A DNA stretch of 64,000 nucleotides from an uncultured Candidatus Saccharibacteria bacterium (GTDB taxonomy: Bacteria > Patescibacteriota > Saccharimonadia > CAZBQI01). Location of the stretch: positions 18,936-82,935 of the forward strand of contig CAZBQI010000002.1 of assembly GCA_964494105.1 (NCBI GenBank), in the 5' to 3' direction. How positions within the stretch are numbered: the first letter of the stretch is position 1; the number at the start of each line of letters is the position of its first letter. This document shows positions 4,542-56,300 of this stretch, one piece after another. The notes beneath the pieces are model-generated. The model did no database searches. It worked only from the letters and a program-made list of their open reading frames with translations, and had not been told where the DNA came from. The position numbers were made by a program, and so were the translations under genes.

Positions 4542-5303
4542 TTAGTCGGTCTTGCTAGCAAACACTACGGTATTGGCTAAATATTCGCCCGTTGCGCGAT
4601 TGAATTGACCACCACATGTAATAAGCCTGAGCCCCGCATATTTAGTATTGCCATAGACTTGCTCTGTAGGAAAGTTATCTTGCTGAAACTGTTGCACTCC
4701 GTCTACTTTAAATTTCACTATACTTCCGTCGGCACGCGTTACTTCTATATTATCGCCGGCTTTTAATTCTTTGAGCCGATAAAAGATGGCGGGACCTTTG
4801 TAGTTATCAACATGCCCCACGATTATACTTGGTCCGGTTTGGCCAGGCGTTGGTGAATACTTATACCACCCAGCTACATCATATGCATCGGGCGTCTCTA
4901 ACGTGCCATCTGCTTCTGTACCTAGTGTTATTAGATTTGTACTAATTCCAACACCGGGAACGCGCAAGGAAACAGGCTCTGACCTTGAAAGCCCATTAGA
5001 CGATAAATTACTTGGCGCCTGAATAGCCTGCTTTGGCGCTGGCAAGGATCCGCTAGAGACCACTGGGCGTTGACTATAGAAGCCAAAATATACCGCTCCT
5101 AATATCCCAATAACTAGCAACACTGCCGTTAGAAAACTTTGGCTGCTAAACGGCAAAGCAATAGTTACTGGTATTGGTTTACTTTGGTTCTTTTTTTCTG
5201 GTAAATAGAAAAGCAGCAGCCAGCCAAAAGCCAGCTGCTGCCCGAAGAAGATAACATCATCAAATGTAAGCTGTAGGTGCAAACGCTTGATGGTTGTCTT
5301 CAT
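4542..5303 (-). CDS. sortase family transpeptidase
   Basis: N-terminal TM anchor. Catalytic His (IIVGHVDN), active-site Cys in LRLITCGG (the TLxTC motif) and a downstream Arg (NRATGEY). Confidence 0.75.
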   Translation of the reverse strand: MKTTIKRLHLQLTFDDVIFFGQQLAFGWLLLFYLPEKKNQSKPIPVTIALPFSSQSFLTAVLLVIGILGAVYFGFYSQRPVVSSGSLPAPKQAIQAPSNLSSNGLSRSEPVSLRVPGVGISTNLITLGTEADGTLETPDAYDVAGWYKYSPTPGQTGPSIIVGHVDNYKGPAIFYRLKELKAGDNIEVTRADGSIVKFKVDGVQQFQQDNFPTEQVYGNTKYAGLRLITCGGQFNRATGEYLANTVVFASKTD

Positions 5304-9331: not shown

Positions 9332-9832
9332 CTACTGAAAGCGTAGCATTGAGCCAATGCGTATCTTGTGTGTATCGATATAACCGGCAGGCAATTCGAC
9401 CACTGAATTTACCGGTATAGAAGAATAGTATACGTTCGGATAAGACGAAGGGCTGATGTTCCTTACCAAACCAACGACTTTTCCGTCTGCAGTAACCCAT
9501 AATACATCTATCGGAAATCTCATATCTTTCATCCAAATGCCACCGGGAGTTTTCTTCTGAAAACTAAGAATAAACGCTTGCCCGTCAGCTAGGCTATTTC
9601 GATCACTTAATCCTTTGGTGCGTTCTTGTTCGTCGTCTGCAATCTGGGCCTGCAGTACCCGACCATCCAACGTTACATTTCTAGTGGGCAGTTGTTGTCT
9701 GCGATCTAGCTTACCAAACAGCTGACTTATGGTTAGTACGGCAAAAAATATAATCGTGCAGGCGACAAACAGCCAAACCTGATTGCGTTTATTAGGCGCC
9801 AATGCGATCTTGTTTTTGCTTGCGTGAGGCAT
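9332..9832 (-). CDS. DUF192 (COG1430) domain protein
   Basis: N-terminal TM, then GLSDRNSLADGQAFILSF...GIWMKDMRFPIDVLWVTADGKVVG, which matches the DUF192 core motif pattern. Confidence 0.6.
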   Translation of the reverse strand: MPHASKNKIALAPNKRNQVWLFVACTIIFFAVLTISQLFGKLDRRQQLPTRNVTLDGRVLQAQIADDEQERTKGLSDRNSLADGQAFILSFQKKTPGGIWMKDMRFPIDVLWVTADGKVVGLVRNISPSSYPNVYYSSIPVNSVVELPAGYIDTHKIRIGSMLRFQ

Positions 9833-10697
9833 TTTGTTCTACATGCTTAATGATCTTACTTGCCACATCTTTGCCAGTAGCTTTCTCGATGCCTTCCAGG
9901 CTAGGGCTAGAATTTACTTCTATCACCAATGGACCACGCTTAGAACGCAGCATATCCACTCCGGCTATATCAAGACCTAATTTCTTTGCCGCCTTTAGTG
10001 CTACCCTCTTTTCGTCATCAGTTAGTACGGCCGATTCGCCCGTACCACCCTGATGTATATTGGCTCTAAAGTCATCATCCAGTCCTTGGCGTTTCATGGC
10101 TGCGATTACACGACCACCAACTACAAATGCTCGAATATCAGCACCACCGGCTTCTTCTATGAATTCTTGAATTAAAATCGGCGCCCCTATGCTAAAGAAC
10201 GCTTGGATCACTGATTTTGCGGCTTTTTTAGTTTCGGCAATAACAACACCCTGGCCATGAGTACTTTTTACCAGTTTTACAATTAGCGGTGCACCACCAA
10301 CTTGCTCTATAAGATCCTCTACATCGCGAGGCTCACTGGCAAACGCGCTTTTCGGTATATCGATATCATCGCGTGCCAATAGTTGCAAGCTTCGGAGCTT
10401 ATCTCGAGAACGTACAATGGCAATCGATTTTGCAGTGGTATATGTATGTCCCATCTCAAACTGACGAACCAATGCACTTCCATAGCTAGTATAGCTGGCA
10501 GCAATTCGCGGAATAATCGCATCGACACCAGATACAACTTGGCCATTATAATGAACTTGTGGTTTGTTTTGCTCGATTTCCATGTAGCACTGCGAATAGT
10601 CCAATACGAGAGCATCATGGCCGGCCTCCTTGGCTGCGTCCCTTAACCGCTGAGTGGAATAGTTGTTTTTTCCTTTTGATAAGATAGCTATTCTCAT
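9792..10697 (-). CDS. rimK: RimK family alpha-L-glutamate ligase (ATP-grasp)
   Basis: MRIAILSK..., ATP-grasp motifs (PLIVKLVKSTHGQGV, ILIQEFI, DIRAFVVGGRV, GLDIAGVDMLRS). 301 aa. Confidence 0.85.
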   Translation of the reverse strand: MRIAILSKGKNNYSTQRLRDAAKEAGHDALVLDYSQCYMEIEQNKPQVHYNGQVVSGVDAIIPRIAASYTSYGSALVRQFEMGHTYTTAKSIAIVRSRDKLRSLQLLARDDIDIPKSAFASEPRDVEDLIEQVGGAPLIVKLVKSTHGQGVVIAETKKAAKSVIQAFFSIGAPILIQEFIEEAGGADIRAFVVGGRVIAAMKRQGLDDDFRANIHQGGTGESAVLTDDEKRVALKAAKKLGLDIAGVDMLRSKRGPLVIEVNSSPSLEGIEKATGKDVASKIIKHVEQNASRKQKQDRIGA

Positions 10698-11134
10698 GTT
10701 TCGTTCTCCCTTCTTGGTTGATGATCCAAATCGATAATAAAATGTTTGCGCAGAAAGTGCCTTCCTAGTAACACCGGATTACGCATTTTCGAGCGATCTG
10801 CCAGAGAAATATGTACCGAATGAATCTCTCCTAGTAATTTTACCTTAGTTTTAATCACAAAGCGCCATTGCAAATGTCCGCTTGAGCTACGAACCTGTAT
10901 GCGTTCAAATTTGCGTTTTATAATCTTTTTACCTTTATAGCCGGCAAATCTTGGTGCCAGCGGTACAAAGTGCAGTTCAAGCAATTCGCCACGCTCAACC
11001 AGCTCTATCGAGTCACAATGAATAGAACAGTGATATGCGCCGGTATCAACTTTTGCCGGAATATTTGCAAGATCAAACTCAAGCAGGTCTATTGGTGCCG
11101 AGCGACCGATAGTTTTTTTCACTTGACTGGACAT
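10694..11134 (-). CDS. retropepsin-like aspartic peptidase (PF05618 putative ATP-dependent zinc protease, RimB-like)
   Basis: 146 aa. DTGA catalytic motif (KVDTGAYHCSIH) and a C-terminal LLGRHFL. Its start and stop both overlap the flanking ATP-grasp genes. Confidence 0.7.
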   Translation of the reverse strand: MSSQVKKTIGRSAPIDLLEFDLANIPAKVDTGAYHCSIHCDSIELVERGELLELHFVPLAPRFAGYKGKKIIKRKFERIQVRSSSGHLQWRFVIKTKVKLLGEIHSVHISLADRSKMRNPVLLGRHFLRKHFIIDLDHQPRRENET

Positions 11135-12054
11135 TATTGTGTTTGCTCCTTTAGTTTATTAACTATTAATTTATGTAGAGCGTCAGTCTTCTCGTCAGTG
11201 CCCACCTTGCTCACAATATCGGGGGCAGCATTCACTTCTAGAATATAGTGTTTACCACTATTTTTATCAATTATTACATCTACACCACTAAACTCGCGCC
11301 GGTGTAGTTTGCCCGCTCTTATTACATCGTTTCTTATTTGTGCCGAAAAATCTTTAGCATCAACAATTTTTCCCTCGGCACCTGCAGAAGTATTGTTAAG
11401 GTGCGTTGAATCATCAAGCCGCGTGCGCTTAATTACCAAAGCGATTTCGCTACCGGCAACCAGAAAACGATAATCACAATCGTTAGCGATATATCCCTGT
11501 AGAACGAAGTCTATTTCTGGTCTGGAATTTACAATTTCTGAAGCGCGCTTAGCATTGTTAGCAAGAAAGTTATTGCTACCACGAGTTCCGTTTATGTCTT
11601 TAACTACCATGGGGAAGCCAAAATTCTTATCGCTATTGATAAATTTGATCATGTGTTTTGGTGTGGAATAATAAGTATTAGGAACGGGGATGCCAGCTAC
11701 TGCTAGCTTCACTAAGTCAGTCAGTTTTGTCATTGAGCGCTTGGAGTGTACTTCACTATCAAAAAACTTATTGCCCTTGTACTTTAAATAAAGTGCAGCT
11801 GCTGTAGCACGCTCATACTGCCGTTGCCACAGTCGAAAGAACACCAAATCGTAATCTGAAATGTCGCGTTTATTGAGGGGATCGTAAATTGTGAGTATAT
11901 TATTTCTGATTAAGAATTCAAGTTCCTTGATAGCGCCCTTATAGGCACGATACCCGTGCGTAGAAGATTTTTTACCTACCTGCTCCATTAAATCGTCGTA
12001 GTTGGGGCGCAGACGGTTTTTGGCATAACTGAATAAAAATAAGACGTCTTTCAT
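11134..12054 (-). CDS. second ATP-grasp domain ligase (RimK/GshB-like paralog)
   Basis: 306 aa. PMVVKDINGTRGSNNFLANN, CDYRFLVAGSEI, and a C-terminal GVDVIIDKNSGKHYILEVNAAP. Diverged from the rimK downstream. Confidence 0.65.
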   Translation of the reverse strand: MKDVLFLFSYAKNRLRPNYDDLMEQVGKKSSTHGYRAYKGAIKELEFLIRNNILTIYDPLNKRDISDYDLVFFRLWQRQYERATAAALYLKYKGNKFFDSEVHSKRSMTKLTDLVKLAVAGIPVPNTYYSTPKHMIKFINSDKNFGFPMVVKDINGTRGSNNFLANNAKRASEIVNSRPEIDFVLQGYIANDCDYRFLVAGSEIALVIKRTRLDDSTHLNNTSAGAEGKIVDAKDFSAQIRNDVIRAGKLHRREFSGVDVIIDKNSGKHYILEVNAAPDIVSKVGTDEKTDALHKLIVNKLKEQTQ

Positions 12055-26897: not shown

Positions 26898-27084
26898 TCT
26901 TTTATTATCGTCTATCTGTTTGCTATAAGAAAATGCTCAAGTTTGATCTGGATTCAAAAGACAAAATTTATAGCTAACACATAGTCTGTTTGAAATTTTG
27001 AAAGGAGGGGTGGCGAAAAGTTGATATAATTCTTGTTAATGTAACTCAGCAAGAATAGTGAAAACTATTTGTATATTCCGACTT

Positions 27085-27159
27085 GGTGGCAGTGGGTGGA
27101 TTTGAACCACCGACCAACAGCTTATGAGTCTGCTGCTCTACCGCTGAGCTACACTGCCC
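27085..27159 (-). tRNA. tRNA with CAT anticodon (elongator Met or Ile2/lysidine type)
   Basis: Manual fold: acceptor GGCAGTG/CACTGCC, D-arm GCTC-AGCGGTA-GAGC, anticodon loop CTCATAA, T-arm GGTGG-TTCAAAT-CCACC, CCA encoded. There are no three G-C pairs in the anticodon stem, so it is not an initiator. It lies 187 bp from tilS. Confidence 0.8.
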
Positions 27160-27864: not shown

Positions 27865-29631
27865 TCACCAGCTACCACCACCGCCGCCACCGCCGCCACC
27901 ACCAGAGAAGCCACCTCCACCACCACCCGAAGATGAACTTTGTGAGGGGGGTGAAAAGTTGCTAGCAACAGCACCGCTAAAATCGCTCGATAAACTCGAA
28001 GCTAGGTAATAGGCACTAAAGTTATGTGTTGGCGAGCCATACCAACTAGTAGCCTCTTCTAGATCCATGCCTTCGAACTGCTTGGCCCACTCTTTTTCTA
28101 CGCCCAAGGCAATAGCGTAGGGCAATAATTTGTTAAACAAATTTGGTGTTTTCTTCGGAGCGTTATGAAATGCCATTCTGTCTTTTTCGGTAACACTTAA
28201 AAACAGTTTTAAGCCCTCAATTTTTGCCCATTCTTGGTAACCGCTTTGGCTATAGGCTGTATAACGCGCCAGAGCAGAACCAAAAATTAAACCGAGAAAA
28301 CCAACAATAAATGACCAAACTACATACCCGCCTTGTACCCCCGCCCCTAATGCAATTACATTAAGTATGCAAAATATTAAAGCCAGCCCTAGCGATAACC
28401 CAATCAACCCCTTTGGCCGTTCTTTTGCGGGTATTTCGGCCGGATAGTATTTTTGAGCTTCGAGATTTTTTTTAAAGGCCACTTTGGCTTGATTGATGGC
28501 GCTCGGGACTTTGGTTTTTGATACGTCCTTAAGCTTGATTTCAGCTTTGCCGTCAAAAATTGCCTCTAGAAGCTTTGTTTCATAATCTACCAAATCCTGC
28601 TTTCCGCTTAAGCGGTAAAAAGTATACTCTGCCTTTTTTATTATTCCGCGTGGCTTTGATTGTTCGATTCTAATATGTCCGCGCCGAGCCAAATCGATCA
28701 GGGTGGCGGTTATCTCTACCATGCTTGAAGAATTATCAATCAAATGGCCAACTTCGCCCGGACTGAGCCCATCCGGAGCATCATATTGAGGAATTATGGT
28801 CTGGGATTTTTTTGCCTGATTGTGGGTATAACTCTTTCGAAGACGGCGACTCAAACCGAATATCAGAGCACCCACCCCCACCACGTAGCCAACAAGTGGA
28901 AAATACTCTTGTGTGGGGCGATTGTTGATAAATAAATAGTTGCTGTACTGGGTAGTGGTGTCATCGGCATAAACTGTTATGCCGGCGTTTGCCGGTAGTT
29001 CTTTCGTGGTCCTCGCCTCGATGGTATTTTGGTCAGACTTTACTTGGCAATTCTGTTGCTGAGTTCCACTTTTCCCGGCATAACACCGCGTTGAATTAAT
29101 GCTTGCACCATCGGGAAACGAAATTTTGCTCTTAGCTTCTCTGATAGGCACCCGCCACTGATCCCCGACAACGTCCCAAATAAAGACGGCTTTATTTTCG
29201 GCCTTTTCCATTACCGGCTCAATGCGATAGGTTATTTGATAGTTGTGAGCACCAGTGATTGTTTTATCAGGGTCCCCTATCCGTAAGTAAAAATAGTTGC
29301 CAGCTCTTTGCTTTTTTACATTCGTAGCTTGGCCATCAACCTTTACATCAATAAGTTCTGCCTTGTAGTAGTAATACCCGCGCCCATCGGCATCGGCAGT
29401 TTTTATCGGAACATACCTTTCTATTCCGTGCCTGGGGAATGAGCCAAAGTTATAAGTTATGTTTTCAGTAATAAGAGCACTCGAGTCAGTAGCTATTTCG
29501 ATTTTGGCATCGTAGCTATCTATGCGCTCAGAATAGTCAGGTATCTCATAGGCTGTCTGCGCATATGCACTGCTGGTAAGTAGACCGCACAAGAGTATGA
29601 CGCTAAAAACTAGCTGCGCAAATCTTCTCAT
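27865..29631 (-). CDS. DUF2207 domain membrane protein with C-terminal poly-Gly tail
   Basis: Signal peptide, a large extracellular domain, TM helices near residues 240 and 400-450, and a C-terminal GGGGGGFSGGGGGGGGGGSW tail, which is characteristic of DUF2207. Confidence 0.7.
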   Translation of the reverse strand: MRRFAQLVFSVILLCGLLTSSAYAQTAYEIPDYSERIDSYDAKIEIATDSSALITENITYNFGSFPRHGIERYVPIKTADADGRGYYYYKAELIDVKVDGQATNVKKQRAGNYFYLRIGDPDKTITGAHNYQITYRIEPVMEKAENKAVFIWDVVGDQWRVPIREAKSKISFPDGASINSTRCYAGKSGTQQQNCQVKSDQNTIEARTTKELPANAGITVYADDTTTQYSNYLFINNRPTQEYFPLVGYVVGVGALIFGLSRRLRKSYTHNQAKKSQTIIPQYDAPDGLSPGEVGHLIDNSSSMVEITATLIDLARRGHIRIEQSKPRGIIKKAEYTFYRLSGKQDLVDYETKLLEAIFDGKAEIKLKDVSKTKVPSAINQAKVAFKKNLEAQKYYPAEIPAKERPKGLIGLSLGLALIFCILNVIALGAGVQGGYVVWSFIVGFLGLIFGSALARYTAYSQSGYQEWAKIEGLKLFLSVTEKDRMAFHNAPKKTPNLFNKLLPYAIALGVEKEWAKQFEGMDLEEATSWYGSPTHNFSAYYLASSLSSDFSGAVASNFSPPSQSSSSGGGGGGFSGGGGGGGGGGSW

Positions 29632-29651
29632 AAGCTTTATTATAGCTTAAA

Positions 29652-30410
29652 CTACGGCCGCAGAGTTCCGGCAAATACTTGCCAGGCCAGCGCACTTTTT
29701 GCTACCAAACTCAATATAATGTACGCCCGCTCGCCATATAGGTAATCCTTCCATTTGCCAACTTTTTTGTATTGCAAAACCATATTGATAGCAAAACAGT
29801 TAAAGAATGCGAAAATCGAAACAAATATCCAGTAAACAAATGTCGGAGGAGCACTACCCTCTTGCGCACTAAAGAAGAAGTAAAGTGCTATTAGAATCCA
29901 TGGCACAATACCAGCAAGACAACCTACCCAGTAGCTGAGCCAATTTGTCTTTGTTGTTGTTTGATTATGCACTTCCATAATTAGTCCACATAGATTCATT
30001 ACAGCAACTAAAGCAAATACGGCAATTAGACTACCAAGATCGTATACACCAACAAGCATAGATATCGCCACCATCATGACAGACGCAGAAATACTGTATT
30101 CAATCCATCGCGCCTTATTAATACCTTTTTGCAAATTTGCTTCGTAGGTTTTTCTATACTTGGTGGCTATCAGCAAATGCGCTGCCGAGGAGAGAAATAG
30201 AAAACCGGCCACCAAAAAAGCTAGTGGAACGGTAAATAACTCTTTAGAAACCGGAACCAAGCTTTGAGTGGCAGTATCAAAATTAAGGTAGCTCGCCGTT
30301 ACTGGCAAACTAAAGTCGGTACTAAGCAGTAGTATCGCCAGTCCTTGCACAAAGTGTAGTGCGGACATTATTAAGTTAAATCTATTGAGTTTGTTTAGTT
30401 TTTCTTGCAT
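29652..30410 (-). CDS. heliorhodopsin
   Basis: From the internal Met (RBS AGGAAG upstream). Near-identical blocks to heliorhodopsin 48C12 as I recall it: RWIEYSISASVMM, GCLAGIVPWILIALYF, and YLYGERAYIILSLVAKSALAWQVFAGTL, the last containing the retinal Schiff-base Lys in helix 7. Confidence 0.85.
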   Translation of the reverse strand: MQEKLNKLNRFNLIMSALHFVQGLAILLLSTDFSLPVTASYLNFDTATQSLVPVSKELFTVPLAFLVAGFLFLSSAAHLLIATKYRKTYEANLQKGINKARWIEYSISASVMMVAISMLVGVYDLGSLIAVFALVAVMNLCGLIMEVHNQTTTKTNWLSYWVGCLAGIVPWILIALYFFFSAQEGSAPPTFVYWIFVSIFAFFNCFAINMVLQYKKVGKWKDYLYGERAYIILSLVAKSALAWQVFAGTLRP

Positions 30411-30465
30411 TATTGTCTTCCTCTTATGCCTATAAATTACAGCCCGCTGAAGCATTTTGCAATCA

Positions 30466-30927
30466 TCAAACAGTAATCTCGCGCACCTCGCAAAAGTCGG
30501 GCACCAGCGTATTAATGACAACACCCAGTTCGTGGCACAAAGCTGCAATCAGCATGCCATGAGTAAACCAAATTGATTCGGTTGGCGGACTCGCAATTAG
30601 CTTCTTGGCAGCTGCGAGTGCTTCCGGGGCAATAATACCCTTAGTTAGGTTTTTGATAGTTTCCGGCGGATTTGGTGTGTTTATTTCATTAAGATCCGGA
30701 CAAACAACCATATTTGAAAACCCGGCCAGCTCGGCAGTTTGATGTGTACGTAGAAGCTCGGATACCGCAACCGGCAGGTTAAAATCTACGCCTATTTTAA
30801 CCAGTTCAAAATGTAATTCCTTGGCTTGCTTCGTGCCGACTTCGCTAAGCGAAGCACCTTGTTTACCAAACAAGTCTCGATTAAGCCGAGTACCCTCGCT
30901 TTTGCCGTGCCGTATAACCAGTCTCAT
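30466..30927 (-). CDS. histidine phosphatase family protein (PGAM/SixA-like)
   Basis: RHG catalytic motif at the N-terminus (VIRHGKSEG) and a C-terminal TH(G) (WFTHGMLIAAL). 153 aa. Confidence 0.65.
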   Translation of the reverse strand: MRLVIRHGKSEGTRLNRDLFGKQGASLSEVGTKQAKELHFELVKIGVDFNLPVAVSELLRTHQTAELAGFSNMVVCPDLNEINTPNPPETIKNLTKGIIAPEALAAAKKLIASPPTESIWFTHGMLIAALCHELGVVINTLVPDFCEVREITV

Positions 30928-30934
30928 AGCCTAA

Positions 30935-31438
30935 TTATAGTTGATGGTTAATCTCATGAGCTGCTACAGCGTGATATGCTGCATCAGGGTCAGCCACAGA
31001 CGGGTTGCTTCTTGTGATTAGATCAACGGTCTCTGCGCACCTTTGCATATAATCTACTTGTTCCTTGAATGCCATCGGCATATCCTCTGGGAACTTTATT
31101 CTGCCATCAGCGCAACTTATCAAAGCCCTTCTCCTTTTAACTAAATCGTCATTTGTTGCACTTGACTCAACAAGTTTGCCATACAGTGTGTATTCCGTGG
31201 CTCGGGAGTTATCTGCTCGATGAATCAAACCTTGATGTAACCATGCTTCTACTTGCGCACCTTGTGTGTCCTCGTAAGTAGCATGAGGTGAGTTCCACAA
31301 AGGGGAATTCCTGTGATCAAATGGAACTGCAACTCTCAGCGCTTCCGCCAAAACACCCGACAGGTTTCGATGCTGTTCTATAAGCTCAGTGGATATACCT
31401 TCAAGTGGATCACGAAAATCCTCAGCACCAATTGGCAT
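30935..31438 (-). CDS. hypothetical protein (HExxH at the extreme C-terminus)
   Basis: 167 aa with no family recognised. Ends ...AAHEINHQL. GC is visibly higher than in neighbouring genes. Confidence 0.4.
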   Translation of the reverse strand: MPIGAEDFRDPLEGISTELIEQHRNLSGVLAEALRVAVPFDHRNSPLWNSPHATYEDTQGAQVEAWLHQGLIHRADNSRATEYTLYGKLVESSATNDDLVKRRRALISCADGRIKFPEDMPMAFKEQVDYMQRCAETVDLITRSNPSVADPDAAYHAVAAHEINHQL

Positions 31439-31591
31439 CTAATTACTCCTATTATCAAATAGTATTATATCATATTTTATATTTATTGCAATTATCTTCA
31501 GCTTAGACATAGATTGCATGGTGATTCTTGCTCACTACGCCGAATCTTCCGCTTCGCTCTACAGTTCGAATCCGGGCACCAGCGTGCTCTT

Positions 31592-31621
31592 AAGAAATAC
31601 AAAAACGCCCCAGTCGGGGCG
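31592..31621 (-). terminator. rho-independent terminator (CGCCCCGACTGGGGCG + TTTTTGTATTTC on minus strand)
   Basis: GC hairpin followed by a T-tract in minus-strand sense, downstream of the 31748..32521 gene. Confidence 0.6.
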
Positions 31622-31639
31622 CTTGTGATTTTCTTGGTA

Positions 31640-32787: not shown

Positions 32788-32862
32788 TGGTAGCGGGGGC
32801 AGGATTCGAACCTGCGACCTCCGGGTTATGAGCCCGACGAGCTGCCACTGCTCTACCCCGCG
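32788..32862 (-). tRNA. initiator tRNA-fMet (anticodon CAT)
   Basis: Manual fold: 1:72 mismatch (C·U). Three consecutive G-C pairs at the bottom of the anticodon stem (TCGGG/CCCGG), loop CTCATAA, T-arm GCAGG-TTCGAAT-CCTGC, CCA encoded. These are initiator hallmarks. Confidence 0.85.
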
Positions 32863-33533: not shown

Positions 33534-33609
33534 GGGGGTGTAGCTCACCGGTCAGAGCAGGTGGCTCATAACCACTTGGTAGATGGTTCGACTCCATCCA
33601 CCCCCACCA
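33534..33609 (+). tRNA. tRNA with CAT anticodon (elongator Met or Ile2/lysidine type)
   Basis: Manual fold: acceptor GGGGGTG/CACCCCC, D-arm GCTC-ACCGGTCA-GAGC, anticodon stem GGTGG/CCACT with loop CTCATAA, T-arm GATGG-TTCGACT-CCATC, CCA encoded. 76 nt. Confidence 0.85.
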
Positions 33610-35769: not shown

Positions 35770-36606
35770 ATGAACCAGCCTCTTGTTTCTGTAATCACCC
35801 CTACCTACAACCGAGCCAAAGTAGTATTGAGTGCTATCAGGAGCGTTCAGGCTCAAACTTATAAAAACTGGGAGCACATTATTATCGATGACGGATCGAC
35901 TGATGATACTCGGCAATCTATAGAGGAGATTAAAGACTCACGGGCGTGCTACCTGTACAGAGAAAATGGTGGGCCTAGCAAAGCACGAAACTTCGGGATT
36001 AAAGCAGCCCATGGCAAATGGATAATGTACCTCGACAGCGACGACACGCTATTCCCAGGCTGCATTGCCACCATGGTGGAATGGCTAGAGAAGAACCCCG
36101 GCAAAGTCTTTGCCATCCCCCGGGCTAAACGCGTAAAGGAACTCTACGAAAACGGCAAACTAATAAAATCTATTGATGACTCTGGCGATACGCCCGCAAA
36201 CTTTACGATTCACGACATTTTTATGCGCAACGCTGGTTTTGCCTGTAATGGTTTTACGCACTTGCGCCAGTTGTTCGACGAAGGAATAAAGTGGGACGAG
36301 AACCTGCACAGCATGGAAGACTGGGAACTGCTAATGAGCATAGGCGAAAAATACCCAGATGGGTTTTTGTATGTGCCAATTGTGCTCTACGAATACCACC
36401 AACGCTTCGGTAGTGATAACCTAGTCAGCCAGGCTAGCTACGGCACTTGGGCTGATGCGTTTGAGTACATCTACAACAAGCACAAAGGCAGTCAATATTT
36501 AGATGGCCAGCTGTGGTACCCAAATAAAGCTGAAAAGTGGCGAAAACTGCAAGCAGAATTTGAGGCCGGCAAACGCCCAGCTTACAAATTCCTCTACTTC
36601 CAATAA
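35770..36606 (+). CDS. glycosyltransferase family 2
   Basis: VSVITPTYNRAKVVLSAIRSVQAQTY...IIIDDGSTDDT, and a DSDD (DxD) motif. 278 aa. Confidence 0.85.
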   Translation: MNQPLVSVITPTYNRAKVVLSAIRSVQAQTYKNWEHIIIDDGSTDDTRQSIEEIKDSRACYLYRENGGPSKARNFGIKAAHGKWIMYLDSDDTLFPGCIATMVEWLEKNPGKVFAIPRAKRVKELYENGKLIKSIDDSGDTPANFTIHDIFMRNAGFACNGFTHLRQLFDEGIKWDENLHSMEDWELLMSIGEKYPDGFLYVPIVLYEYHQRFGSDNLVSQASYGTWADAFEYIYNKHKGSQYLDGQLWYPNKAEKWRKLQAEFEAGKRPAYKFLYFQ

Positions 36607-51728: not shown

Positions 51729-52304
51729 CTATTTAACAAGCTTGGCTTCAATCACCTCTCGACCATCACTACTACCCGATAACGTACATGAATAAAGGGT
51801 TAAGCGAGACTCGCTAACGTTCTCGATTTCTGTTTGATTTGGTTTTACTTTGTAGATTTTTTCGATTCTGTATTTGTATTTTTTTCCATTCCAGTGAACT
51901 TCAATTTCATCTCCGGTTACAAGCTTATTGATATCGTAGAATACACTAGCTTCTTTTACCAAATTTGGGGTTTGCGCAAACTTAAACCGATGACCGGTTA
52001 ATATAAAATTTCCACCCATTTCCGGATCACCTCGTTCTGGATATCTGTGCCATACGCCTTTTTCTAAAACAGAATTATCACCTTCTAATATTTCGCGATT
52101 TACATTTATCTTCTTGATGATTACTCGATTTTCTTTAGCTACCTCGATATTCGATAGCTTTTTTGTAGGAATTAAGGTCGGCGCATTTAATAAAATCAAC
52201 AAATACAAACCGCCGGTAACTAAAATAGCGGAAAGCAAGGCCATGGCGAATATCACTTTTTTTGAACGAAAGCGCCCTGCTTTCGTCTGAGCTTTGTTGC
52301 TCAT
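51729..52304 (-). CDS. sortase family transpeptidase (likely class E, LAxTG-specific)
   Basis: N-terminal TM. His in ILTGHRF, TLxTC Cys (LTLYSCT) and an Arg downstream. It sits next to three LADTG proteins. Confidence 0.7.
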   Translation of the reverse strand: MSNKAQTKAGRFRSKKVIFAMALLSAILVTGGLYLLILLNAPTLIPTKKLSNIEVAKENRVIIKKINVNREILEGDNSVLEKGVWHRYPERGDPEMGGNFILTGHRFKFAQTPNLVKEASVFYDINKLVTGDEIEVHWNGKKYKYRIEKIYKVKPNQTEIENVSESRLTLYSCTLSGSSDGREVIEAKLVK

Positions 52305-52777
52305 CTTAAATTGTTAGTCGGCTGCTGATTTTGAGGTTTTTCTTCTATTTGAAACGCACCCACATTAACGATTAGTTTTCGCTCTGGACTGTAGATGTAA
52401 GCTTTTTTAGCATTGGCAAAAACCACAACTCTATCACCATTCTTGGCATCTTTGTAAAAATCTTTGTCCTTTAGTTGGTTTATATCTGTAATGGTTGCAA
52501 CCACAGGATCTTCATTTGTAGGCATAATAATTATTTGTCGCATTTCGCCTAGTAACTCTTGGGTTTGAGTCTTACTCAGTTCTTGCTGACCCTGAACAGT
52601 TGATAGTTTTTCAACTTCCTTTCTAGTTTCGGCATATTTTGTGTAAAGGAAAGCAACACCACCAGCAAGAGCGAGCAAAATTAGTAAAATTAAAAGCCAA
52701 AGTAACTTGCTTTTAACTGACTTCTTGGATTTCTTATTGTGATTCGAATTTGGTAATGTCGCTTCTAGATCTGCCAT
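52301..52777 (-). CDS. hypothetical membrane-anchored protein
   Basis: 158 aa: basic N-terminus, one TM helix, a coiled coil, then a small C-terminal domain. Overlaps the sortase stop by 4 bp. Confidence 0.4.
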   Translation of the reverse strand: MADLEATLPNSNHNKKSKKSVKSKLLWLLILLILLALAGGVAFLYTKYAETRKEVEKLSTVQGQQELSKTQTQELLGEMRQIIIMPTNEDPVVATITDINQLKDKDFYKDAKNGDRVVVFANAKKAYIYSPERKLIVNVGAFQIEEKPQNQQPTNNLR

Positions 52778-52794
52778 ATGAGTCTCCTGCTACG

Positions 52795-53670
52795 TTATTT
52801 CTTTATTCGGATACTATTAATTTTACCATGATTTAAGCCGTATATTCCGAATATTCCAGATGTAACTAAGGCAAATGCAACAAAAAGAATTAGTCGCGTA
52901 CTACCGCCGGTATCGGCCAAAACTGGCGTAGAACTAGACGCTTGATTTACTGTCGCATTGGCACAATTGGCATCATCATACGTAAGTGTAACCGAGGGTA
53001 GGGTCTCTGTAGTGTTGGCTTGTGAACCATTTGGCGGATCAAAAATTAAGCCCTCAATGATTTCGACGTTTGAGATAACAAACAAATTACTCAAATTCCC
53101 AAAGGTAGTGGCGTACGAGCCACCGGGATGAGTAAATACACTACCAACATTTGTATTACTGCTAACAGAAAGATAGGGAGTAGAAGGCCCCGATACATCA
53201 AAGAGTGCATGACTTGAATTATTTGAGGCCGGATTTGGAATGGTGCCGCTCATGGCAACTATGGTTGAAACAGACGGGCCAACAGCAACGGTCACCGGCG
53301 TTGAACTGGGGCAATTTGTGGCAGTTGACACTACCGCAAAAGCGCCGATTTCGTGCACGGTATTATCTGTTCCGGTGGCTAATGGCTGCGCGTTTAGGCC
53401 GGGGTTAAAGTTGGTGCTTGGTGCGTTTCGCAGTGAAAATGTTGTATCAGTGTTCGGCGCAGCCGAAGCATCGCCGCCGGCTTGAGCAATTGCCAATACA
53501 GTAGCGTTTGGTGCACCCCAGCCGGAGGGAGGAGTAACAACTTCATTTACAGTTGCAGCCTGTACCGAAGTAATGGGTAACAATGATGCCGGTAGCATCA
53601 GTGCCAATCCTAAAATTATGTTTAACAGCTTCTTGACCATTTTTATTTGCTCCACTAAGCGACAACTCAC
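52795..53670 (-). CDS. LADTG-anchored surface protein (paralog A)
   Basis: Signal peptide. The N-terminal domain is shared with 55221..56300 (VTP...LAIAQAG...NPGL...C.S.TPV.V). The C-terminal sorting signal is LADTG + TM + HGKINSIRIKK. Confidence 0.6.
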   Translation of the reverse strand: MSCRLVEQIKMVKKLLNIILGLALMLPASLLPITSVQAATVNEVVTPPSGWGAPNATVLAIAQAGGDASAAPNTDTTFSLRNAPSTNFNPGLNAQPLATGTDNTVHEIGAFAVVSTATNCPSSTPVTVAVGPSVSTIVAMSGTIPNPASNNSSHALFDVSGPSTPYLSVSSNTNVGSVFTHPGGSYATTFGNLSNLFVISNVEIIEGLIFDPPNGSQANTTETLPSVTLTYDDANCANATVNQASSSTPVLADTGGSTRLILFVAFALVTSGIFGIYGLNHGKINSIRIKK

Positions 53671-53728
53671 TTGTATAAACCTATTGTAACATAAAATGCT
53701 TACGGCAACAGCTTAGATGTACTAATTA

Positions 53729-55105
53729 TTACAACAGTATTTTATGCTGGCGCAGAACAAAAATGCCGGCTATGCCCGAGGCAATTAGGCTGAAGGCAAA
53801 GTAAATTGCAAGCTTGGAGCTATCGCCGGTGTCGGCAAGTTCCTCGCTGCTAGCGGCAGCTAGGGTAAAGCTAACAGAGGTGGTGGCAGTTTGGTTAGGG
53901 CCAAATGCAAACTGCCGCGGACTATCACCAACCGCAATTGTACCCGTAGTAACTAGAGTTGTCGGATTACGCACACTTATCTGATCTAGTCCTGCCTCCG
54001 ATACATACAGTTTTGAGAAATCACTAGTAAATGCAGGGAAATATGGTGTTGAGCCAGCTCCAGTATTTACGGTACTAGTTACAGTATTTGAGTTTGTATT
54101 GATAATTGAAATATTGTCGGATGTGGCATTTGCAACCAATAATAATGATTGGTCTTGGTTAAATGCGCTCCCAAGCGGTCCATCCCCAACACTAATAGCA
54201 CTGCCGGAAGTTTCCGTCTGGGTATTGTAAGGCGTTGCTGAGTCTCCACCATTAGAAATAGAGTAGCCGTGTATGTTGTCGGATTTAAGGGGTCCACCTC
54301 CACCAGACGAGGCAAAGGTGCTTAATTGTGTATTTGTAGCAATATTTATCACAGACATCGTACCGCTACCAACATTTGCAACATACACACGCGATGAATC
54401 AGAGCTCATAGCAGGGTAAGCTGGGAAATTTTGGTTATAGCCTGTTACGGCAGCCGAGATTGTAGGGTCAGCTGAGCTATAACGTGTCACAGTGCCACCG
54501 CTAAAATCCCCTGCCTCCGAACTAACATAAAAATAAGTGCCATCGGGCGTGTAATTCACTGCAATTGCATGGGCGCCCGCAGCTGTTAGGTTATGAGTAA
54601 TTACCGGCACCTCCGGGTTACTTAAACTCCAGACCTTTATTGCATTTGCGCCAAATCCAGAGACACTAACCATTTGTGTACCACTTGGGCTAACCACCAC
54701 GTTGTTTTGACTAACACTAGAGCTAATATCGGCACCAATCTTTTCATCGGTGACTGCGTTTATGACAGAGATTGTGGAATCTCCAGAATTTGGCACATAA
54801 GCATACTGCACACTCGCCGTCGCCTCAATTGTTTTAGCGCCTGCGCTCTGGCCCGTAACATTAAGGCTCCAGTTGCCCGAGTTGTCTGAAGTGGTGGTGC
54901 CAACGGCGGTGCCGTTGACCTTGACTGTAATGGCGCGCTTGGCGGTGGCAGTACCGGTAACGGTAAAACTTGTGCCGATGGCGGTAGAGCCATTGCTTGG
55001 CGAGGTAATCGCAACTGAAGTGGCAGCCGAGACAGCTAAAGGCATGAACGCCATTGTAGCAACCAGTAAAACTGCAGCTACAAATGAAGTGAGCCTTTTG
55101 AACAT
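53729..55105 (-). CDS. LADTG-anchored surface protein with YVTN-type beta-propeller repeats
   Basis: Signal peptide, Ig-like N-domain, and repeated motifs (YVPNSGDSTISVINAVTD, VYVANVGSGTMSVINIATN, LLVANATSDNISIINTNSN, LYVSEAGLDQISVRNPTT). C-terminus EELADTGDSSKLAIYFAFSLIASGIAGIFVLRQHKILL. Confidence 0.65.
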   Translation of the reverse strand: MFKRLTSFVAAVLLVATMAFMPLAVSAATSVAITSPSNGSTAIGTSFTVTGTATAKRAITVKVNGTAVGTTTSDNSGNWSLNVTGQSAGAKTIEATASVQYAYVPNSGDSTISVINAVTDEKIGADISSSVSQNNVVVSPSGTQMVSVSGFGANAIKVWSLSNPEVPVITHNLTAAGAHAIAVNYTPDGTYFYVSSEAGDFSGGTVTRYSSADPTISAAVTGYNQNFPAYPAMSSDSSRVYVANVGSGTMSVINIATNTQLSTFASSGGGGPLKSDNIHGYSISNGGDSATPYNTQTETSGSAISVGDGPLGSAFNQDQSLLLVANATSDNISIINTNSNTVTSTVNTGAGSTPYFPAFTSDFSKLYVSEAGLDQISVRNPTTLVTTGTIAVGDSPRQFAFGPNQTATTSVSFTLAAASSEELADTGDSSKLAIYFAFSLIASGIAGIFVLRQHKILL

Positions 55106-55220
55106 TGTTTGTTTCTCCTCAATTAACTTCTCTTAACTCTGTCACACATTTTAACACAAATCGCTTGTGGTTCACCAAGGCTAAGACTGCTCGTGGCGTT
55201 AAGGTTGCTTGAATCTGTTC

Positions 55221-56300
55221 TTACAGCAGTTTTTTGTGTCGACGTAGAACAAATGTCCCAGCTACGCCCGAGGCAACTAGGCTGAAGGCAAAGTAAAGTG
55301 CAAGCTTGGAGCTATCGCCGGTGTCGGCTAGAGTCGCCCCTGATTCAGTAACTGTAATTGTGACTGTTACGGTAGTGGTGCCACCATTACCGTCGCTAAC
55401 TTGTACCGTAAGTGTGTATTTTCCCGCTGGCACATTTGCCCTTGTGGTGGTGATGTTGCCGTTAGCCGAGTTAATAGCAAAGTAGCCGGCGCCATTACCA
55501 GCGGTTATGCTGTAAGCTAGAGTGTCGCCATTTGGATCTGTAGCACTATAGCTTGATCCGTTTACAATAACTGCTCCATTTGCAGTAGCTGAAGAAACAA
55601 TTGTTGTGGAGACACTCGCATTAGACACCACCGGAGCTAATGGGCAGGTAGCGTTGTCGTAACTGAGAGTGATTGTTGGTAAGCCTAACACGGCAGTACC
55701 TTGATAATGAGTACCGCCAGAAAATGTAACAGCCTCAAAGTTAACAAACGAAGCAATATTGGCTAAGTTTCCAGCGGTTGTGCTCATAGTCTGGCCACTC
55801 CCTGACGCACTGTACATTCCATTGGTATCACGAGAAGTCTGATTATAACCGGCAAGAGTAACTCCTCCGTTGATATCAACTAATGCACTCACAATTGTGT
55901 ATTCATCATTACCTGGTTGGGCATTTTGAAGTTCGCGGGTGTAGCTGCTAAACGTTACATCTACCGGCGTATTGCTCGAGCAGGTGCTAAGTACAGAAGG
56001 AATAGTAATCATAGAAAATTCATTACCCGACCCACCGGCTGGCTCCGGGCTATCTAGCCCCGGATTTATTACTGTACCCGGAGTGTTACGAGATGCAATT
56101 GTAACATTTGGAAGCGTTGTGCCGGCCTGTGCTATAGCAAGGAACCCCCCGCTACCGGGTTGCCAGGCTGTAGGGGTAACAGTTTCGGTAACCGCCAACG
56201 CATGAACAGACGTAGTTGATAAAAACATTGGCGCTATAGAACCAATTGTAAATACCACTAAGGTGATAATTAATTTTAGTTTATCTGCTAGGTTGCTCAT
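55221..56300 (-). CDS. LADTG-anchored surface protein with cadherin-like domain (paralog B)
   Basis: Signal peptide. Cadherin-repeat signature ATDPNGDTLAYSITAGNGAGYFAINSANGNITT...GKYTLTVQVSDGNGGTTTVTVTITV. C-terminus TLADTGDSSKLALYFAFSLVASGVAGTFVLRRHKKLL. Confidence 0.65.
   Translation of the reverse strand: MSNLADKLKLIITLVVFTIGSIAPMFLSTTSVHALAVTETVTPTAWQPGSGGFLAIAQAGTTLPNVTIASRNTPGTVINPGLDSPEPAGGSGNEFSMITIPSVLSTCSSNTPVDVTFSSYTRELQNAQPGNDEYTIVSALVDINGGVTLAGYNQTSRDTNGMYSASGSGQTMSTTAGNLANIASFVNFEAVTFSGGTHYQGTAVLGLPTITLSYDNATCPLAPVVSNASVSTTIVSSATANGAVIVNGSSYSATDPNGDTLAYSITAGNGAGYFAINSANGNITTTRANVPAGKYTLTVQVSDGNGGTTTVTVTITVTESGATLADTGDSSKLALYFAFSLVASGVAGTFVLRRHKKLL

Follow-up and report, generated by a model that had tools for sequence, protein, structure and literature searches.

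A canonical heliorhodopsin gene in a Saccharimonadales genome, flanked by phosphatase and DUF2207 genes that are probably incidental neighbours

In the 64-kb stretch of DNA analysed here (the window), a Saccharimonadales (Patescibacteria/CPR) genome carries a heliorhodopsin gene that is canonical and maintained by selection. The reading we prefer, to which we give a probability of about 0.8, is that the product is a light sensor of the usual heliorhodopsin kind, which uses scavenged retinal and acts on one or more partners, and that the adjacent genes are incidental. The apoprotein would insert with its N-terminus inside the cell, and all-trans-retinal from other organisms would bind Lys238, with Glu104 as the counterion. 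The protein would then behave as a slow-cycling light sensor, as characterised heliorhodopsins do, without pumping ions. Once driven by light, it would alter the activity of its partner protein or proteins by direct contact. The phosphatase gene upstream and the DUF2207 gene downstream (Table 1) are most likely mere neighbours, and the heliorhodopsin and DUF2207 genes each appear to have a promoter of their own.

Table 1. Features of the heliorhodopsin locus and the window (positions are those of the window)
Feature	Position	Strand	Basis or remark
DUF2207 membrane protein, 588 aa, Gly-rich C-terminal tail	27865..29631	-	Pfam
TATAAT box in the heliorhodopsin/DUF2207 spacer	29639..29644	-	7 nt before the DUF2207 ATG
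Heliorhodopsin gene, 252 aa, complete	29652..30410	-	Pfam, NCBIfam and alignment to solved structures
Shine-Dalgarno-like AAGAGGAAG	30417..30425	-	Read from the sequence; 6 nt 5' of the ATG at 30410
GCATAAG 7-mer; recurs in heliorhodopsin genes, adjacent to the -10 box	30423..30429	-	
Promoter-like TTGCAA-N17-TAATTT in the phosphatase/heliorhodopsin spacer (55 nt)	30434..30462	-	Inferred from conservation
Minimal histidine phosphatase (branch 1), 153 aa	30466..30927	-	Pfam His_Phos_1
167-aa ORFan	30935..31438	-	Ends 7 nt before the phosphatase start
Promoter-like TTGCAA-16-TATAAT with TG extension	31464..31491	-	Consensus scan, 10/12; predicted
GC-rich hairpin, then a T-run; resembles a terminator on either strand	31603..31624	-	9-bp stem, 6 GC pairs
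Family-2 glycosyltransferase	35770..36606	+	Pfam scan of the window

The identity of the gene is clear: it encodes a heliorhodopsin and not a member of some other 7TM family. The enclosing open reading frame spans 29652..30548 on the minus strand, and an internal ATG at 30410 yields the 252-residue product that an earlier note on this DNA had proposed. This internal Met is likely to be the true start because the Shine-Dalgarno-like AAGAGGAAG precedes it; homologues are 251-254 residues long. Against Pfam PF18761 (cut-off 26.7 bits) the protein scores 344.2 bits (E 4e-103), with residues 8-250 covering profile positions 1-242 of 242, and against the NCBIfam HeR equivalog NF038020 (cut-off 100) it scores 350.9 bits. 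It aligns over its full length with the solved structures 6IS6, 6SU3 and 6UH3, the sole gap being one of 4 residues in the TM5-TM6 loop. The helix-7 stretch SLVAKSALAWQ, which the earlier note had also picked out, is present, and its Lys238 aligns with the Schiff-base lysine of 6IS6 and 6SU3. The other key residues are His19, His78, Glu104 (at the counterion position, within RWIEYS) and Ser234. All five are invariant across 29 relatives. A type-1 microbial rhodopsin, the alternative that the earlier note had named for a profile search, is rejected because helix 7 carries SLVAK and not DxxxK, and because the Pfam Bac_rhodopsin profile has no match in the protein at E up to 0.01. Lysine and arginine residues number 3 in the N-terminus, 6 in loop 84-102 and 5 in loop 215-228, a positive-inside pattern that fits a seven-helix heliorhodopsin with inverted, N-in topology. 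The frame is intact and 88/88 invariant columns of the family alignment are kept. Compared with the relatives L084, L089 and L090, identity is 83-85% for the heliorhodopsin, 71-74% for the phosphatase, 64-66% for DUF2207 and 57-60% for TilS.

The best solved match is TaHeR from Thermoplasmatales archaeon SG8-52-1 (PDB 6IS6 / 7CLJ), with a score of 290 bits and 242 aligned residues, 58% of them identical. The two proteins do not differ in their C-terminal 23 residues, YIILSLVAKSALAWQVFAGTLRP, and His19, His78, Glu104, Ser234 and Lys238 correspond to TaHeR His23, His82, Glu108, Ser234 and Lys238 (TaHeR numbering being the chain index minus a 6-residue N-terminal offset). There are also differences. 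The host of TaHeR is an archaeon whereas the present one is a CPR bacterium, and the TM5-TM6 loop is 4 residues longer in the window protein. A second reference is 48C12 (PDB 6SU3), the founding heliorhodopsin, from a freshwater actinobacterium. It has the family and the helix-7 motif LSLVAKSALAWQ in common with the window protein. However, TaHeR and not 48C12 is the closest solved relative, and the long near-identical blocks with 48C12 of the earlier note were an overstatement: a 48C12-like chain is 46% identical, with longest identical runs of 12, 7 and 6 residues.

Heliorhodopsin is already common in Saccharibacteria, and the window gene is a typical case. Its product shares 57-87% identity with hundreds of heliorhodopsins from Saccharibacteria. 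The nearest database relatives, at 83-87% identity, are on metagenome contigs, and the best relative in the JGI metagenomes is 72% identical. Heliorhodopsin patterns are matched in at least 587 GTDB species genomes, the best 80 of which are mostly Saccharibacteria. The closest relatives are prokaryotic, not viral. In Saccharimonadia, 80 heliorhodopsins with SLVAK motifs have been reported (PMC9166423). Those of freshwater CPR genomes (Chiriac et al., 2022; PMC9166423) share host class and SLVAK with the window protein, although the window lineage is distinct at the species level from the Saccharimonadia lineages of that study. The value of the present gene is therefore mainly one of cataloguing, since Saccharimonadia heliorhodopsins and the missing retinal synthesis are both already in print.

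What of the host and its supply of retinal? The closest named relatives of the window LepA are Saccharimonadales or Patescibacteria, which places the host as a reduced-genome Saccharimonadales (CPR) bacterium. Contigs of relatives measure 0.4-0.9 Mb, consistent with small genomes, so the reduced genome proposed earlier finds support. Sortases and LADTG-anchored proteins encoded in the window fit a monoderm envelope. A Pfam scan that took in every window ORF of at least 70 aa (LepA by way of precomputed Pfam matches) found no match to BCD/Blh, SQS_PSY, Amino_oxidase, lycopene cyclase or polyprenyl synthase, in agreement with the earlier remark that the window shows no retinal genes. Saccharibacteria with rhodopsins are reported to be without blh and to be probable scavengers of retinal, and both TaHeR and the type-1 rhodopsins of Saccharibacteria reportedly take up external retinal rapidly (PMC9296517). 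Retinal would be obtained from other organisms; the window is without blh or crt genes and the lineage is reported to be without them, although genes for retinal may lie in the part of the genome outside these 64 kb. The Pfam scan also placed a family-2 glycosyltransferase gene in the window (Table 1). Near the heliorhodopsin locus, Rfam gave nothing besides tRNAs.

The partner of the heliorhodopsin is a more difficult matter. Papers on glutamine synthetase, photolyase and an ABC transporter describe regulation of partner proteins by heliorhodopsins, and all of these functions were found by way of adjacent genes (PMC9529153, PMC9769723, PMC11109279). In the AbHeR-glutamine synthetase, TfHeR-photolyase and OcHeR-OmrDE ABC transporter cases, the flanking genes are co-oriented and the spacers short, as they are here. 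What if, in this lineage, the heliorhodopsin binds the 153-aa phosphatase or the DUF2207 protein and changes its activity in light? The earlier note had suggested such a light-sensing signalling module with the phosphatase. If true, this would add a new partner class beside glutamine synthetase, photolyase and the ABC transporter. We consider it unlikely for reasons that emerge from the arrangement of the genes, their neighbourhood in relatives, the nature of the phosphatase and the spacers.

The phosphatase gene does lie co-oriented and 55 nt upstream of the heliorhodopsin ATG, as had been stated, and the unknown ORF and the DUF2207 gene are on the same strand too. However, 57 of the 73 called window genes are on the minus strand, so co-orientation around the heliorhodopsin gene carries little weight. 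The 22-nt overlap of the DUF2207 and heliorhodopsin genes that had been claimed is absent. The heliorhodopsin gene ends with the TAG at 29654..29652, and DUF2207 can start no earlier than the ATG at 29631. This leaves a 20-nt spacer (29632..29651), and the overlap-based argument for co-transcription falls. DUF2207 scores 94.1 bits against PF09972 and 144.5 bits against DUF2207_C (PF20990), and so has both N- and C-terminal domains. The 167-aa ORFan has no Pfam or NCBIfam match, and a comparison with 1.84 billion representative proteins brought up nothing but the ORFan itself. L089 and L090 are without it; a Peptidase_M23 gene precedes the phosphatase there.

Three approaches probed conservation of the trio: tblastn, a family HMM run on 174 loci, and a Pfam census of 139 upstream and 148 downstream neighbours. 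Only three lineages, the window's own, L089 and L090, have the phosphatase-heliorhodopsin-DUF2207 order; in L175 the phosphatase-heliorhodopsin pair is followed by the end of the contig. That the order is kept in these lineages while flanking proteins have diverged to 57-66% identity speaks for a functional link. However, L084 is an equally close relative (heliorhodopsin 85%, LepA 92%) and has no adjacent phosphatase: a divergent Na/Ca exchanger gene lies upstream of its heliorhodopsin gene, and three genes, one of them on the other strand, lie between heliorhodopsin and DUF2207. L085 and L087 also lack the adjacent phosphatase, and relatives at 76-77% identity have neither neighbour. In 160 further heliorhodopsin loci the phosphatase-family HMM has 0 matches and DUF2207 has 1, on the opposite strand. 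The 139 upstream neighbours match 136 Pfam families, the commonest of them 5 times and His_Phos_1 twice, and the 148 downstream neighbours match 176. A conserved phosphatase-heliorhodopsin-DUF2207 operon is thus rejected outside a shallow clade, in contrast to the operons that join heliorhodopsins to their published partners. No general partner of Saccharimonadia heliorhodopsins came out of the census either, with NAD_binding_10 in 5/139 upstream and Clp-type AAA+ and ABC_tran in 8/148 downstream neighbours each.

Within the shallow clade, the relatives that carry the trio have also retained DivIC upstream and TilS downstream, and the order is no more than their background synteny. Nevertheless, some selective retention is possible because the order persists in three lineages with TilS only 57-60% identical. 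On balance, the adjacency looks like one inherited within a shallow clade and not like a light-signalling module.

The phosphatase itself offers little that points to signalling. It is assigned to branch 1 of the histidine phosphatase superfamily by profile and catalytic residues. It scores 50.7 bits against PF00300 His_Phos_1 (cut-off 21.7), although only positions 3-81 of 194 in the profile are covered, and its catalytic set (Arg6-His7-Gly8, Arg60, Glu81 and His123) is invariant in 10 homologues. Intact and conserved catalytic residues speak for the module, and the RHG...R...E...H core and small size are shared with SixA as well as with Thermus 2P6M / 1V37. However, SixA phosphohistidine phosphatase is rejected, with 14 bits against TIGR00249 (cut-off 74.5) and a weaker match to the SixA-like PDB entry 3F2I (E 9e-5) than to alpha-ribazole-phosphatase-like proteins (E 4e-8). 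Among solved structures the nearest in sequence is 2P6M, an alpha-ribazole-phosphate phosphatase-like protein of Thermus thermophilus, and the likeness is closest to small-molecule phosphatases. The protein is far below every NCBIfam equivalog cut-off (25.6 bits against 162.9 for cobC). An AF2 model of modest confidence (pLDDT 66.5), for which the best Foldseek matches are phosphatases of the phosphoglycerate-mutase family, did not discriminate subfamilies. The phosphatase belongs to a very small subfamily, of which a word-indexed database yielded 10 proteins. None of the orthologs at 37-47% identity adjoins a heliorhodopsin gene, and assembly CAYSJS01 has its phosphatase and heliorhodopsin genes on separate contigs (1 and 8, respectively). 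Pfam shows no histidine kinase, response regulator or HPt gene in the window. Neither the histidine phosphatase nor DUF2207 is among the ten published groups that recurrently flank heliorhodopsin genes, and a literature search returned no publication linking either to heliorhodopsin. The phosphatase is a poor first candidate for the function of CPR heliorhodopsins because it is not a recurrent neighbour.

Both spacers contain promoter-like elements that are conserved, and the heliorhodopsin and DUF2207 genes may for this reason each be transcribed alone. Between phosphatase and heliorhodopsin, the window, L089, L090 and L175 share TTGCxA-N17-TAAnnT, whereas the 17-nt spacer has diverged. The window version is not listed by a consensus scan because its -10 fits only 3/6 consensus positions. 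Between heliorhodopsin and DUF2207 there is a TATAAT box, and GGCTATAAT-N7-9-ATG precedes DUF2207 in L089 and L090 and also in L084, where DUF2207 does not follow heliorhodopsin. No Shine-Dalgarno sequence was seen before the DUF2207 ATG. The box is likely to be DUF2207's own promoter, giving a leaderless-type transcript. Further upstream, a promoter-like TTGCAA-16-TATAAT site is predicted 26 nt before the ORFan start, and the terminator-like hairpin separates an upstream 257-aa ORF from the ORFan-phosphatase-heliorhodopsin run. The predicted promoters of the locus are short, weak consensus matches. A scan of the window sequence found no strong terminator between the phosphatase and heliorhodopsin genes, so co-transcription of the two by read-through is possible.

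Another proposal is that the heliorhodopsin is an ion transporter, for instance a light-gated proton channel like viral V2HeR3, that aids the energetics of a fermentative CPR cell. This has some appeal, as CPR bacteria have few routes to a proton gradient (PMC9296517) and proton transport by viral heliorhodopsin is cited in passages of PMC11109279 and PMC12873467. However, the nearest relatives of the window protein are prokaryotic heliorhodopsins and not viral ones, its identity is 58% to TaHeR and 46% to 48C12, and its counterion and His residues are the same as in those two. Neither TaHeR nor 48C12 reportedly showed ion transport in the original reports. Ion transport is thus quite improbable. 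That the gene is a non-functional relic in a host unable to make retinal, as the lack of retinal biosynthesis genes in the window might suggest, is barely credible given the intact frame, the full set of invariant columns, a heliorhodopsin more conserved than its neighbours and the reported rapid uptake of external retinal by TaHeR and Saccharibacteria type-1 rhodopsins (PMC9296517).

The heliorhodopsin literature examined yielded no characterised CPR heliorhodopsin, and the window protein is a clean, typical candidate for expression. The control of its gene provides a further lead. In this group, heliorhodopsin genes appear to have promoters of their own along with a 7-mer, GCATAAG, that recurs, and this could help to find a regulator. 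The 7-mer is present in 17/137 heliorhodopsin upstream regions compared with 13/836 for non-heliorhodopsin genes of those loci (Fisher p = 3e-8). Conceivably, GCATAAG/CTTATGC serves as the operator for a regulator that is specific to heliorhodopsin genes. It occurs only 3 times in the window.

The earlier note's identification of this gene as a heliorhodopsin proves correct, since profile matches, functional residues and charge pattern all agree. The protein covers the whole Pfam Heliorhodopsin profile (344 bits) and scores 351 bits against the NCBIfam HeR equivalog (cut-off 100), whereas the search of both profile sets returned no type-1 rhodopsin match. The conserved lysine is present as Lys238, within SLVAK; together with Ser234, Glu104, His19 and His78 it aligns with functional residues of solved heliorhodopsins, and all are invariant across 29 aligned relatives. 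Lys/Arg residues concentrate at the N-terminus, in loop 84-102 and in loop 215-228, the pattern expected of the inverted N-in topology. The open reading frame extends upstream of the gene (see table). However, the true start is the ATG, which is preceded by AAGAGGAAG; the resulting length agrees with that of the homologues (251-254 aa).

The close likeness claimed to 48C12, the founding heliorhodopsin from a freshwater actinobacterium, holds as far as family membership but was overstated. The top solved-structure match is archaeal TaHeR (6IS6; 290 bits, 58% identity), with 48C12 behind it (212 bits, 46% identity). More generally, Saccharibacteria heliorhodopsins are nearer to those of Thermoplasmata/Methanomassiliicoccales archaea (57-63% identity) than to 48C12, a likeness that may point to transfer between archaea and the CPR.

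Features of the heliorhodopsin locus and of the surrounding window
Feature	Position	Strand	Remark
Sortase genes (two) and three adjacent surface proteins	51729..56300 and 4542..5303	-	sequence features
ATP-grasp cluster	9792..12054	-	
tRNA-Met (CAT) gene	27084..27158	-	
DUF2207 gene	27865..29631	-	begins 20 nt past heliorhodopsin stop
TATAAT box	29639..29644	-	in 20-nt spacer, 7 nt ahead of DUF2207 ATG
Heliorhodopsin gene	29652..30410	-	ATG at 30410; product 252 aa
Heliorhodopsin ORF, full extent	29652..30548	-	opens at TTG overlapping upstream gene
GCATAAG (arrangement two)	30423..30429	-	upstream of heliorhodopsin
Histidine phosphatase	30466..30927	-	stops 55 nt ahead of heliorhodopsin start
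167-aa ORF	30935..31438	-	ends 7 nt before phosphatase start
Promoter-like site	31464..31491		sequence prediction
Strong hairpin	31603..31624		sequence prediction
tRNA-Met (CAT) gene	32788..32862	-	
tRNA-Met (CAT) gene	33534..33609	+	

The locus encodes a Saccharimonadales heliorhodopsin that is typical and well conserved. We favor, with a probability of roughly 0.8, a reading in which it works with scavenged retinal as a light sensor and acts on a partner by contact. Retinal would most likely be taken up, without synthesis by the cell itself, and the regulation of a partner protein by contact is modelled on characterised heliorhodopsins (PMC9529153, PMC9769723, PMC11109279). A Pfam scan of every window ORF of at least 70 aa (LepA via its precomputed Pfam hits) bears out the reported absence of retinal biosynthesis genes from the window: it found no carotenoid or retinal enzyme, nor any type-1 rhodopsin, histidine kinase or response regulator. 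Such a gene in a reduced genome lacking retinal genes follows a pattern known from published surveys of Saccharimonadia, and the window adds one more case to it. Eighty heliorhodopsins have been described in this class, with SLVAK among the common motifs (Chiriac et al., 2022; PMC9166423). In Saccharibacteria that carry rhodopsin, blh has been shown to be missing, and retinal was proposed to come from other organisms (Jaffe et al., 2022; PMC9296517). Two heliorhodopsin peptide patterns find matches in at least 587 GTDB species genomes, and relatives with E < 1e-20 number thousands of proteins.

The host assignment is in keeping with these surveys. Proteins labelled as Candidatus Saccharimonadales or Patescibacteria share ~70% identity with window LepA, and the best heliorhodopsin relatives among GTDB genomes are mostly from Candidatus Saccharibacteria. 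The three adjacent surface proteins have Ig-like, PKD or beta-propeller domains; at their C-terminal ends LADTG (not LPXTG) is followed by a hydrophobic helix and a basic tail. With the two sortases they make up a wall-anchoring system of monoderm type, which fits a monoderm envelope, in agreement with the reported restriction of heliorhodopsins to monoderms.

The alternative is a clade-specific functional link of heliorhodopsin with the phosphatase or DUF2207, which we consider unlikely. The phosphatase does lie 55 nt upstream as described; the 22-nt overlap reported for DUF2207 was an error, the genes being separated by a 20-nt spacer instead. An identical heliorhodopsin in the same gene order occurs on three metagenome contigs. 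L089 and L090, relatives' loci with heliorhodopsins 83-85% identical, keep all three genes, and L175 keeps the phosphatase-heliorhodopsin pair up to the contig end. However, DivIC upstream and TilS downstream are likewise kept, so the trio is conserved no better than gene order in general, and shared orientation weighs little because 57 of the 73 called window genes lie on the minus strand. In L084, as close as these relatives (heliorhodopsin 85%, LepA 92%), a divergent Na/Ca exchanger gene replaces the phosphatase, and heliorhodopsin is separated from DUF2207 by three genes, of which one lies on the opposite strand. Neither neighbour is found in relatives at 76-77% identity. Across 160 further heliorhodopsin loci at 56-80% identity, half of them from GTDB species and half from metagenome contigs (80 each), an HMM built for the phosphatase subfamily had no match and DUF2207 appeared once, on the opposite strand. 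Immediate upstream neighbours (139 genes) fell into 136 Pfam families, the commonest seen 5 times; His_Phos_1 occurred twice, in L089 and L090. Heliorhodopsin gene contexts, including those of Patescibacteria, have been analysed (Bulzu et al., 2021; PMC8612252), and no paper in the literature searched links either the histidine phosphatase or the DUF2207 family to heliorhodopsin.

Among immediate downstream neighbours (148 genes, 176 families) even the commonest are rare: a Clp-type AAA+ ATPase in ~8 loci (convergent in L022, L031, L100, L122 and L158) and an ABC transporter ATPase in another 8.

The phosphatase itself bears no mark of a signalling enzyme. It retains Arg6-His7, Arg60, Glu81 and His123 and is therefore probably active. 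It scores far under the SixA (phosphohistidine phosphatase) cut-off; its nearest kin by sequence are enzymes like alpha-ribazole-phosphate phosphatase, which act on small molecules. An AF2 model of moderate confidence (pLDDT 66.5) resembles the phosphoglycerate-mutase family generally. The subfamily is small (10 proteins), members at 37-47% identity have no heliorhodopsin beside them, and in assembly CAYSJS01 the two genes are on separate contigs.

Are the genes transcribed together? The predicted hairpin and promoter-like site suggest a transcription unit beginning at the 167-aa ORF. This ORF, identical on three metagenome contigs, has no relatives among 1.84 billion representative proteins, which makes it an orphan gene or else non-coding. 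In the 55-nt spacer the window, L089, L090 and L175 share TTGCxA-N17-TAAnnT, even though the stretch separating its two hexamers differs among them. The 20-nt spacer holds the TATAAT box and no Shine-Dalgarno sequence before the DUF2207 ATG; the same box occurs in the L089 and L090 spacers and in L084 (~9913..9918), where the box precedes DUF2207 though this gene does not follow heliorhodopsin. In four related lineages DUF2207 has GGCTATAAT 7-9 nt ahead of its ATG, again with no Shine-Dalgarno sequence. This suggests a leaderless DUF2207 mRNA made from its own promoter. With promoter-like elements in both spacers, heliorhodopsin and DUF2207 probably each have a promoter of their own. Obligatory co-transcription thereby loses its main argument, although read-through may still occur. 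Of 137 surveyed heliorhodopsin genes, 35 (roughly a quarter) likewise carry an extended -10 box spaced for a leaderless mRNA.

Upstream of heliorhodopsin genes no 7-mer is more enriched than CTTATGC/GCATAAG, which is present in 17 of 137 upstream regions vs 13 of 836 intergenic upstream regions of other genes at the same loci (Fisher p = 3e-8). Carriers include the window, L084, L085, L089, L090, L096, L107, L043, L142, L009, L019, L039, L049, L152 and L174. It always adjoins the -10 box, in two arrangements. In one, GCTTATGC-TATAGT-N6-ATG, it sits just upstream of the -10 in a leaderless layout, fixed at -19. In the other, TATAAT-TAA-GCATAAG, it is inverted and just downstream. Shared descent of gene plus promoter may explain part of the enrichment; alternatively, the 7-mer could be an operator.

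Two further features of the window deserve mention. In the ATP-grasp cluster, two ATP-grasp proteins, one of them a RimK-type ligase, are grouped with a putative ATP-dependent zinc protease (PF05618), which is unusual for a reduced genome. A 6.5-kb stretch around the heliorhodopsin locus contains three tRNA-Met (CAT anticodon) genes, and because one adjoins tilS, at least one of them may be a lysidine-modified tRNA-Ile2.
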